A DNA stretch of 64,000 nt from the IMG/VR virus record IMGVR_UViG_3300033489_000001, positions 286,023 to 350,022 of that record; one strand, given 5' to 3'. Shown here in pieces: positions 38,776-58,502 of this stretch; position 1 is the first letter of the stretch, and each line of letters starts with the position of its first letter. The translations under genes and the position numbers were made by a program. This DNA is from a virus. Its lineage: Duplodnaviria > Heunggongvirae > Uroviricota > Caudoviricetes. The notes beneath the pieces are model-generated. The model was not told the DNA's origin and made no database searches. It worked only from the letters and a program-made list of their open reading frames with translations.

Positions 38776-38806
38776 TTAATTTGCACTCCGTAAATTTCTA
38801 CTGTAA

Positions 38807-38847
38807 TATACGGAGAAGGTTTTATGCCTTCTCCGTATAATTGAAAC
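38807..38847 (+). CRISPR. solitary CRISPR-like repeat A
   Basis: 13-bp stem TATACGGAGAAGG/CCTTCTCCGTATA followed by ATTGAAAC. Confidence 0.6.
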
Positions 38848-38866
38848 ACTGTGATATATGCATGAA

Positions 38867-39001
38867 TCCTTCTAAGATTTACAGCTCTTTGAAAAGATAT
38901 GCGGTTCTGAAAGAAAATCTTCTTTTGGATAAAATCTGAAAAGTAAGAGCTGTCAGGGAGAAGGTTTTACCTTCTCTGATAATTGAAATGATAATTGAAA
39001 T
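38867..39001 (+). CRISPR. leader plus solitary CRISPR-like repeat B with duplicated 3' end
   Basis: Repeat GTCAGGGAGAAGGTTTTACCTTCTCTGATAATTGAAAT (38952-38989) then GATAATTGAAAT; leader homologous to 57326-57421. Confidence 0.65.
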
Positions 39002-47795: not shown

Positions 47796-47866
47796 CTCTA
47801 ACTTCCCCGAAAAGGTCAGGGATTAAGTCCTTGACCTTTTTACTTTTAACCAATGGAACACTGACT

Positions 47867-48300
47867 GTGCCTACTTTTCGCGAGATAAATGCTATAAACA
47901 TATTTGGTAGACTTGTTACGGTTTTAGAGATTCTAGATGATAATCATCAACCGGTTGGTGACGCTGAATTGAGCTTTGACGACTCAAAAATTGCTGTACT
48001 TGAAGATTTTTATATACGCCGGGCTCATCGTGGAAAACCCCATAATTACGGCAGAGCACTTCTAAAGGAGATCCTCGGGAGGGTTCAACGTCAAGGGGCA
48101 ACTATTTTACGTTGTCATCCCCGCACTTATGAACGGCGTTATGATGAACGGCGTGGTGCCCCCAAATTTTTAATTGTACTAAGAAAATGCCAGAAGCTAA
48201 ATTAATAGAATGGTATGCATCTCAAGGTTTCAGAGAAATTGATCAGGACTCAGATGAATTTCAGCAACATTGTTTAAGACTCTGCATAGCGTTAAGATGA
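47867..48300 (+). pseudogene. frameshifted GNAT acetyltransferase, paralog of 49163..49600
   Basis: GTG start (MPTF...ILDDNHQPVGDAELS...RAHRG..YG..LL); C-terminus PEAKLIEWYASQGF lies in another frame. Confidence 0.75.
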
Positions 48301-48314
48301 TGAGAGCAACTTAG

Positions 48315-48833
48315 TTACGCAACCATTTTTCCAGTAAAGAACTCGAATTTGGTTGGTAACTGTCTAATACAATCATTAAAATCATTAGTAGCGAACGTCG
48401 CCCGTTCTAAACACGGCTCTAGAGGAACGTTTGAACAACCTAAACCCATATCCCCCATCTGCCGTTGAAACCACCCATAGAAGCGCAAACCTTCTAAAAT
48501 ACCAAGCTTGTCAGCATACTTGGTCAGCCTCTTCATTTGATCCTCAATAGGGGCACACCAACCCTTCAATCTCTCTGGACCATCTGGGGTTTTTTCAAAC
48601 CCATCGAATTTAAACATGGGGAAATTGAACTCAGTTTTAGTTGGCGTCTCTATTAATTTTATTTCATTATTGGTGAAGCCTGAGGCCAAAACCAAGCCGA
48701 TCTCTGTGGCCTTAAAAAATGGGCGGCCATCACGTATCCACCGCCAACTTATTGGGATAGTATCAATAGTTGAAATTGCCTTAATCGTGTAAGTTTCAGG
48801 TTCTGCTTTAATTGGATTTGAACTTTGTTGCAT
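48315..48833 (-). CDS. hypothetical protein, paralog of 49578..50111
   Basis: Shared IPISW.W...G.P.F.ATE..LVLASG...NEIKLIE...LRFYG.F.R.MG.M.LGCSN.PL. Confidence 0.8.
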   Translation of the reverse strand: MQQSSNPIKAEPETYTIKAISTIDTIPISWRWIRDGRPFFKATEIGLVLASGFTNNEIKLIETPTKTEFNFPMFKFDGFEKTPDGPERLKGWCAPIEDQMKRLTKYADKLGILEGLRFYGWFQRQMGDMGLGCSNVPLEPCLERATFATNDFNDCIRQLPTKFEFFTGKMVA

Positions 48834-48900
48834 AGATGCCTCTTACACCAGCAAACATAGAAAAAGATCCTCTCGGTATTCATTCCGTGTACTCGACCGG

Positions 48901-49080
48901 TGAAAAGAACTAGAGGGAGGTTTTAGCTCCCTCTAGAAAATACCAAGGAGAGTTGACCCCCATCGTAGTCCAGTTTCAATTACAGAGGGATTTTTTTAGC
49001 TCCCTCTAGCCTTGCGAATTTGTCGTGCATTAGCATCGCCGTAGTGTTTCAATTACAGAAGGAGTTCTAGTTCCCTCTAC
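48901..49080 (-). CRISPR. CRISPR mini-array: 3 repeats, 2 spacers of 36 nt, no cas genes nearby
   Basis: Repeats 49046-49080 and 48973-49009 (minus strand ...CTGTAATTGAAAC) and a degenerate trailer ending 48936; spacers 49010-49045 and 48937-48972. Confidence 0.85.
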
Positions 49081-49128
49081 AGAGAGCTTACTTTTTAATT
49101 GCAACAACGGCAACAACTTAAATGATGA

Positions 49129-49156
49129 TTGACCTAAAATTATTAGGCTTTACATT
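49129..49156 (+). promoter_or_regulatory. sigma70-like promoter, probably leaderless
   Basis: TTGACC-16 nt-TACATT, 6 nt before ATG 49163. Confidence 0.5.
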
Positions 49157-49162
49157 TGGCCT

Positions 49163-49600
49163 ATGCCTTCTTTCCTTATAGAAGAGGTAAAAAAATCTGG
49201 TAGGCTTGTTGCTAGCATAAAAATCCTGGATGATAACCACCAACCAGTGGGCAATGCGGAATTGAGTCTTATCAACCCAAATACTGCCAGGCTTGATGAT
49301 ATTTACATATACCGGGCTCATCGCGGAAATAGCTATGGCGTTGAACTTCTAAAGAAGACTCTTGAAGAAGCAAGACGGCAGGGAGCTACTATTTTACGTT
49401 GTCACCCAAGCCCCTACGAATATGGACCTAATGAGTTGAAGGATAAAAGAACACTCCCTAGTCGCACGCCACAAGCCAAGTTAATAACGTGGTACGTGGC
49501 TCAAGGATTTAAAGAGCTTAACCTTAAACTAGAACAAGATCGTGATGAATTTGAACGATATTCTTGCAAACTTTACATTATGCTGAACTCGACCACTTGA
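49163..49600 (+). CDS. GNAT family N-acetyltransferase
   Basis: LDDIYIYRAHRGNSYGVELL motif A; WY...GF motif B. Confidence 0.85.
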   Translation: MPSFLIEEVKKSGRLVASIKILDDNHQPVGNAELSLINPNTARLDDIYIYRAHRGNSYGVELLKKTLEEARRQGATILRCHPSPYEYGPNELKDKRTLPSRTPQAKLITWYVAQGFKELNLKLEQDRDEFERYSCKLYIMLNSTT

Positions 49601-57325: not shown

Positions 57326-57467
57326 TCCTTTTTAAGGTTTTGAATTCTTTGAGAAAAGGTAAGCGGTTCTAAGAGATAGTCTTCTTTTAGGTAAAACCTG
57401 AAAAGCAAAAGGATTGACTGCCTAGGGAGGACTCTAAGTTCCTCCTGTAATTGAAACTAATTGAAAC
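57326..57467 (+). CRISPR. leader plus solitary CRISPR-like repeat with duplicated 3' end
   Basis: CTAGGGAGGACTCTAAGTTCCTCCTGTAATTGAAAC (57422-57457) then TAATTGAAAC; leader 57363-57408 is 38/46 identical to 38901-38946. Confidence 0.7.
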
Positions 57468-58114: not shown

Positions 58115-58502
58115 CCGGCCTCCACAATACTTATACCAGAAATTGCTTTCTGATTGATCACTTCCTGCTTCATAGGTCCATAACTCGTAGACCAAGATAA
58201 TTCTTGCGTTCGCTCCAAAATTTCTTGAAAGCTTGATCTAAAGCTCGTAAAGCATATTGAGGACAATCTTTAGCAACTTCAAAAAGCCAAGCAAGTTCGT
58301 CTTTCTTGGCTTTTACCAATTCCTTATGCTCAGCAAAAGCATTAGTAAATTTGTTCTTCCCTTCTTTAGTATTAAATCTCTCAATTCGTCTGGCTAAAGA
58401 CCAATTCCAAGCAAATCTAGTTGCTCCAGCTGATCTAAATAAGAGAGTCCTAACCCTATTATTGGGAACTAACTCTACTCTTATGGCTTTATGACGTTCC
58501 AT
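58115..58502 (-). pseudogene. tnpB: internally deleted tnpB: N-terminal ~100 codons joined to the 3' tail
   Basis: KAIRVEL.P...AGATRFAWNW.L...WL.EV.K...Q.AL..LD.AF..F; followed by ATGAAGCAGGAA (MKQE) tail; no RuvC. Confidence 0.85.

Follow-up and report, generated by a model that had tools for sequence, protein, structure and literature searches.

CRISPR arrays are built of direct repeats of 23 to 55 nt, with unique spacers of similar length between them. Among the arrays described from viruses, those closest to the one considered here include that of a type I-C variant found in huge phages, which combines a Cas5d-like protein, Cas8c and Cas7 with a helicase instead of Cas3 and carries no Cas1 or Cas2 (Al-Shayeb et al., 2020, PMC7162821, in the parts of that paper drawn on here). 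The same parts report that the active-site residues of Cas5 differ somewhat in this variant and mention huge phages with host-like repeats, and its authors propose there that phage systems without a nuclease may act by repressing transcription or may draw on Cas proteins of the host. [quoted passage not shown] Repeats of the CRISPR type also occur in RNA anti-CRISPRs (Racrs), one of which is of type I-C (Camara-Wilpert et al., 2023, PMC10651486), and crRNA-like regulators have been documented in the portion of the literature covered here.

Here we describe a two-spacer array on a 64-kb stretch of phage DNA (hereafter, the window), which spans bases 286023-350022 of a 411,618-bp virus record that has direct terminal repeats and is rated complete. 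Coordinates marked G000 refer to the whole 411-kb phage genome, and unmarked coordinates refer to the window. In our view the locus probably (roughly 0.78) serves the phage's own type I-C variant system as a satellite CRISPR array. Like the mini-arrays of Sulfolobales viruses, it is virus-borne, falls within their range of one or two spacers and has a presumed use against competitors (PMC6858448). Those arrays, however, come without cas genes and pair host-type repeats with host Cas proteins, whereas here the virus encodes a matching Cascade, and here no target was found in a related virus. As with Racrs and other solitary repeat units (PMC10651486), solitary repeats of this family that follow a promoter-like leader are present in the phage genome too. 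Unlike a Racr, however, the mini-array consists of three repeats and two spacers rather than a single repeat, and its repeats mimic the phage's own array and not a known host array.

Results

A two-spacer array lies on the minus strand of the window

Between positions 48900 and 49082, the window carries two 37-nt repeats (R1 and R2), a degenerate third (R3) and two unique 36-nt spacers (A and B), an arrangement that qualifies as a CRISPR array and fits the description given in an earlier, sequence-only reading of this DNA (Table 1). A repeat finder returned the three repeat copies at 73- and 71-nt spacing. An 18-nt repeat core was present in three copies in the window against 0.09 expected, and none of 100 shuffled sequences reached three. 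In both R1 and R2, an 8-bp hairpin is followed directly by an identical 11-nt end, GTAATTGAAAC, and the handle that the sequence-only reading had placed after the hairpin was thus borne out in both intact repeats. Its choice of the minus strand as the RNA strand was upheld as well, as the G-U pairs of the stems would turn into C-A mismatches if the plus strand were the RNA. In R3, a T-rich tail takes the place of the handle. A terminator scan flagged the site as terminator-like, and the element looks like an intrinsic terminator by its sequence. In arrays that work, the final repeat is normally degenerate as well.

An Rfam scan at gathering and loose thresholds matched neither CRISPR-DR nor any other family. 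When folded as a whole, the array was not clearly better than its shuffles (z = -1.9); support for its structure comes from covariation (see below) and not from folding energy.

The array sits in a 329-nt gap, with a same-strand 172-aa ORF on one side and a divergent GNAT gene on the other. The 172-aa ORF had no Pfam, PHROG or PADLOC match and no relatives in IMG/VR. As two GNAT paralogues bracket the mini-array together with this ORF, the array lies inside a local duplication. From the position of the 80-nt AT-rich stretch upstream of R1 on the RNA strand, we infer that it functions as a promoter. No sigma-70 consensus was found upstream of the array on the minus strand, and only the last ~9 nt of the stretch resemble the conserved leader of the solitary repeats described below. 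DNA polymerase, helicase, methyltransferase and a tail-fibre-like giant protein are also encoded within the window.

Table 1. Positions of the mini-array, its flanks, the solitary repeats and the cas operon (G000, whole-genome coordinates; all others, window coordinates)
Feature	Position	Strand	Description
Repeat R1 (leader-proximal)	49046-49082	-	37 nt; covariance-model match E 0.0074
R1 hairpin	49056-49079	-	8 bp including two G-U pairs; handle 49046-49055 ending in ATTGAAAC
Spacer A	49010-49045	-	36 nt
Repeat R2	48973-49009	-	37 nt; covariance-model match E 0.0014, best in window
R2 hairpin	48983-49008	-	8 bp including one G-U pair; handle 48973-48982
Spacer B	48937-48972	-	36 nt
Degenerate trailer repeat R3	48900-48936	-	perfect 10-bp hairpin 48910-48936
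Putative leader	49083-49162	-	80-nt AT-rich stretch between R1 and divergent GNAT start
172-aa ORF	48315-48833	-	directly downstream of array, same strand; no assigned function
GNAT acetyltransferase gene	49163-49600	+	divergent from array; Pfam Acetyltransf_1 E 1e-8
Second GNAT gene	47831-48205	+	paralogue of 49163-49600 gene, 56% identity
Solitary repeat	38809-38847	+	covariance-model match E 0.095
Solitary repeat, duplicated handle and conserved leader	38954-39001	+	covariance-model match 38954-38989, E 0.013
Conserved leader of the 57422 unit	57340-57420	+	~65 nt
Solitary repeat, tandemly duplicated handle	57422-57467	+	covariance-model match 57422-57457, E 0.0023
Solitary repeats outside window	G000 139046, 140758, 143341	+	
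Solitary repeats outside window	G000 154079, 164197, 165298, 202158, 218441	-	
Conserved accessory ORF	G000 194044-194814		256 aa
SF2 helicase	G000 194814-197129		771 aa; only ResIII/DEAD matched
Cas7 (cas7c)	G000 197232-198167		311 aa; Pfam Cas_Cas7 3e-48; PADLOC Cas7c 4e-45; NCBIfam Csd2
Cas8c	G000 198280-199980		566 aa; Pfam Cas_Csd1 1e-31; PADLOC Cas8c 1e-29; NCBIfam Csd1
Cas5 (cas5c)	G000 199981-200691		236 aa; Pfam Cas_Cas5d 1e-9; PADLOC Cas5c 3e-26; NCBIfam Cas5c
Myb-like ORF	G000 200782-201741		319 aa; heads cas5-cas8c-cas7-helicase operon

The mini-array repeats belong to the family of a large array elsewhere in the genome

About 141 kb upstream of the mini-array, the phage genome holds a main array of ~66 repeats of the same family (G000 189027-193630); the repeat core had 54 matches genome-wide, nearly all of them within this block. 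On the minus strand, the main-array repeats (36-37 nt) form a 9-10-bp stem, usually with a 5-nt loop, followed by G and TAATTGAAAC. Their spacers are all different and mostly 30-37 nt long, a length of which the 36-nt spacers of the mini-array are typical. At its 193.6-kb end the array has five or six identical repeats, and the most degenerate ones sit at the opposite end, which places the leader at the 193.6-kb side.

The main array is unusually heterogeneous, with at least four stem variants that differ by compensatory changes, while its 11-nt handle is nearly invariant. Several of its units, along with two solitary repeats of the window, carry a tandemly duplicated handle.

A covariance model trained on 63 repeats, all from the main array, was run against both strands of the window with filters off. 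The five best matches were R2, R1 and three solitary repeats, so that a model made from cas-adjacent repeats recovers both intact repeats of the mini-array; R3 went unscored because its handle is lost. Across 71 repeats, 91% of stem cells were paired and eight of the nine pairs showed changes on both sides. The covariation score was 0.484, compared to 0.305 +/- 0.015 for shuffles (0 of 500 reached the observed value), and sliding the partner by one to three columns lowered pairing to 56-71%. This strong covariation of the stem points to selection on an RNA hairpin with an almost invariant handle, read from the minus strand. The stems and loops of the mini-array differ from the main-array consensus (loop of 8-10 nt versus 5 nt); given the heterogeneity tolerated within the main array, we assume that Cas5c would accept the mini-array repeats.

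A 16-mer repeat search of IMG/VR gave 11 matches, all of them single chance ones in unrelated sequence. In the 411-kb genome itself, we found no other repeat family of this kind and no other repeat-spacer array. Two further repeated elements were seen there. Tandem 69-bp repeats lie at both genome ends (G000 1-140 and 411375-411618), within or adjoining the direct terminal repeats. At two other loci (G000 139880-139990 and 150277-150400), an element of ~40 nt with dyad symmetry inside it is present in two copies spaced ~65 nt apart, and its orientation at one locus is opposite to that at the other; it is not CRISPR-like.

The phage encodes a type I-C variant Cascade

The sequence-only reading had called the array Cas-less. 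This holds for the 64-kb window, in which a scan of the ORFs found no cas gene, but not for the genome, which carries cas5c, cas8c and cas7c at G000 197232-200691. These genes belong to a row of six that adjoins the leader end of the main array on the same strand, 134 kb from the mini-array. All NCBIfam type I-C matches fell below the curated cut-offs, which marks the Cas proteins as divergent. Cas5 also matches solved type I-C pre-crRNA endonucleases (E 7e-16), and the 771-aa helicase matched no Cas3 model and no solved structure. Six-frame cas-domain searches, in each of which control genomes responded, found no Cas1, Cas2, Cas4, Cas6 or Cas3 HD domain in the 411-kb genome, and no second (Cas12j-type) system was found in it.

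Set against canonical bacterial type I-C (Dvulg), the phage system shares homologues of Cas5c, Cas8c and Cas7c, the absence of Cas6 and the match of its Cas5 to type I-C endonucleases. It differs from the canonical system in having neither Cas3, with its HD and helicase parts, nor Cas4, Cas1 and Cas2; in its repeats of 36-37 nt, where the canonical ones are usually ~32 nt; and in the heterogeneity of these repeats within one array, with compensatory stem changes. In type I-C, the hairpin of the repeat runs into ~11 nt with ATTGAAAC at the end, and Cas5 cuts at the 3' base of the stem. The repeats here fit this rule, in agreement with the match of Cas5 to the solved endonucleases. Judged by its genes, the system is a type I-C variant in which a helicase stands in for Cas3; as the genome has no Cas6, Cas5 is the predicted processing enzyme. 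The sequence-only reading was therefore right to see a class 1 mini-array in a phage, read from the minus strand, but the type I-G resemblance that it proposed has to be given up. Type I-G is marked by a Cas5-Cas6 fusion, a Csb1-type Cas7 and Cas8u2; here all three effectors best match I-C-specific models, and no Cas6 domain is present in the genome.

Relatives of these proteins are rare. A search of 5.8 billion proteins with Cas7 found just two relatives, at 49% identity, and IMG/VR yielded none. One of the two lies on a 453-kb huge-phage contig from JGI that carries the same module, in the order cas5, cas8c, small ORF, cas7, 802-aa helicase, accessory ORF and ~35 repeats. The repeats of that contig, too, consist of a hairpin and a handle, which ends in ATTGAAAT, and come in several variants. 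Identities between the two phages are 35% over the full length of the helicase and 47% for the accessory protein.

The phage genome has what marks the huge-phage I-C variant: cas5-cas8c-cas7, a non-Cas3 helicase, an array, no cas1 or cas2, and a genome of >200 kb. As far as the variant is described in the parts of PMC7162821 drawn on here, the likeness extends to the gene set and order, the array by the helicase end, a phage genome of >400 kb, and the lack of adaptation genes, Cas6 and a Cas3 HD domain. In contrast, a two-spacer array and ~12 solitary repeats lie far from the cas genes here, and those parts of the paper mention no such satellites.

The earlier suggestion that the array borrows host Cas effectors has thus become unnecessary, the phage having its own Cascade genes and a matching 66-repeat array. 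We also weighed a broader form of host dependence, in which the mini-array would supply crRNAs to a host class 1 system and draw on its Cas3, its adaptation enzymes or its whole Cascade. The phage has no Cas1, Cas2, Cas4 or Cas3 HD nuclease, and the homogeneous, apparently young cas-proximal repeats of the main array suggest that spacers are acquired in trans; dependence of virus mini-arrays on host Cas has precedent (PMC6858448), and huge phages with host-like repeats are mentioned in the parts of PMC7162821 drawn on here. Nevertheless, a complete Cascade gene set and matching repeats occur in the same genome, so that a host effector complex is not needed, and we regard this explanation as unlikely. 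Host factors may possibly contribute to spacer acquisition or DNA degradation, as distinct from the effector complex.

The spacers matched no target in the collections searched

As the sequence-only reading had reported, the spacers have no self-match: neither matched the 411-kb genome at up to 11 mismatches, and a seed-anchored self-search with both spacers found nothing beyond the 9-10 nt expected by chance. Spacers A and B had no match in IMG/VR, JGI metagenome contigs or GTDB genomes. These collection scans masked the flipped-out sixth positions and required an exact match at 23-26 specified bases, and since they demand near-exact matches they would miss diverged protospacers. Three leader-proximal spacers of the main array had no match in IMG/VR either, and blastn searches of GenBank phages with the mini-array and the whole main array returned only chance-level matches. 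As protospacers turned up neither for spacers A and B nor for the main-array spacers searched, the PAM could not be read.

Neither spacer A nor spacer B is a copy of a main-array spacer. The ACTACG-like start that had been noticed in both is real but carries no weight as a motif, as k-mer sharing among spacers is at the level of shuffles: all 58 spacers together share 45 8-mers, against a shuffle mean of 35.5 and a shuffle maximum of 61. We accordingly rejected a shared spacer-start motif as meaningful.

The repeat family also occurs as solitary units across the genome

Apart from the two arrays, ~12 solitary units of the same repeat family (a hairpin plus TAATTGAAAC/T) are scattered over the phage genome. 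They are mostly intergenic, and several run antisense into the 3' end of a neighbouring gene. Four units (G000 139046, 218441, 324975 and 343443) have in common a conserved, promoter-like upstream leader of ~65 nt. The sequences downstream of the solitary repeats had no second match in the genome.

One unit (G000 202158-202194, minus strand) lies 417 nt upstream of the Myb-like ORF in the same orientation. Its placement before the cas operon recalls, by analogy, crRNA-like RNAs that regulate such operons; a search for partial targets of this unit gave no match. The solitary repeat at 38811-38847 has near-identical 11-nt direct repeats on either side (38800-38858), which suggests insertion with target duplication. 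Two ORFs of 671 and 862 aa near a solitary repeat of the window had no PADLOC, Pfam or PHROG match. Next to a solitary repeat there is also a 110-aa ORF (58170-58502, minus strand) with the N-terminal HTH of IS605 OrfB/TnpB (Pfam E 2e-12); we set it aside as a candidate TnpB, as it is an N-terminal remnant from which the RuvC part is absent.

The solitary units raise the question of whether the mini-array, too, might make a decoy or regulatory RNA, akin to a Racr or a crRNA-like regulator, that soaks up or redirects Cas proteins, its spacers being filler or partial-match guides. At least 12 solitary repeats of the same family, several of them behind a shared promoter-like leader, fit such a role, as does the failure to find protospacers; Racrs, including a type I-C one (PMC10651486), and, in the literature covered here, crRNA-like regulators offer precedents. 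However, the full repeat-spacer-repeat-spacer-repeat layout with two canonical 36-nt spacers is absent from the solitary units, neither spacer has a partial self-target beyond chance in the seed-anchored search, and a phage with a cognate Cascade would be inhibiting its own system. We consider this explanation quite improbable for the mini-array; a decoy or regulatory role is a better fit for the solitary repeats than for a canonical two-spacer array.

Discussion

The analysis establishes the anatomy of the array, its strand, its repeat family and the presence and type of the phage's cas genes; how the locus works is deduced from anatomy and homology. Taken as a satellite array of the phage's own type I-C variant system, the locus would work as follows. 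Transcription of the minus strand would begin in the 80-nt region by the divergent GNAT gene. In type I-C systems Cas5 replaces Cas6, and the phage Cas5c would likewise cut the pre-crRNA at the 3' base of the R1 and R2 hairpins. Processing of this kind would yield two crRNAs, in each of which a ~11-nt handle that ends in AUUGAAAC would precede a 36-nt spacer, with a hairpin at the 3' end. R3 would contribute its hairpin as the 3' terminus of the second crRNA, and the U-rich tail behind it probably keeps transcription from running on into the 172-aa gene. The crRNAs would then load into the phage Cascade (Cas8c, Cas7 and Cas5), paired with the conserved SF2 helicase. A target in a competing element or in the host would be bound and its transcription or replication blocked with the help of the helicase, or host Cas3 might be recruited. 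As no nuclease domain is recognisable, binding and blocking is the likely outcome; degradation would need a borrowed host Cas3.

A decaying, non-functional relic, derived from a copied piece of the main array that landed at the junction of the duplicated GNAT module, might account for the position between two GNAT paralogues, the degenerate third repeat and the stems that differ from the main-array consensus, but we judge it very improbable, since R1 and R2 keep a perfect 11-nt handle and intact 8-bp stems whose differences are G-U-compatible, working arrays normally end in a degenerate repeat, and the spacers are not copied from the main array.

A wider reading can also be put forward, which we hold to be doubtful. 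The nuclease-free Cascade and its helicase would be a programmable binder fed by a large array, a satellite mini-array that has its own terminator, and a dozen solitary repeats with promoters of their own, several of them directed antisense into 3' gene ends and one close before the cas operon. The mini-array and the solitary units would together amount to a virus-encoded CRISPR regulon. Such a regulon would act on genes of the host, of competitors or of the phage, each at a given time in infection, instead of serving plain immunity.

As phage arrays, virus mini-arrays and this cas variant have already been described, the discovery is an incremental one. The heterogeneity of the repeats with its compensatory changes, the dozen promoter-preceded solitary repeats of a phage with a cognate Cascade and the tandemly duplicated handles are more unusual. 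An array that looked orphaned now belongs to a complete effector system, within a phage genome of 411 kb that is itself complete, and the huge-phage I-C variant can now be studied with three natural substrates: a large heterogeneous array, a two-spacer satellite and solitary repeats. Compensatory variation among ~70 repeats with one invariant handle amounts to a natural mutational scan, which indicates that a Cas5c-type processing enzyme needs the shape of the repeat and its handle but not the stem sequence. If the helicase-linked Cascade silences its targets rather than cutting them, it would represent a compact natural CRISPRi module.
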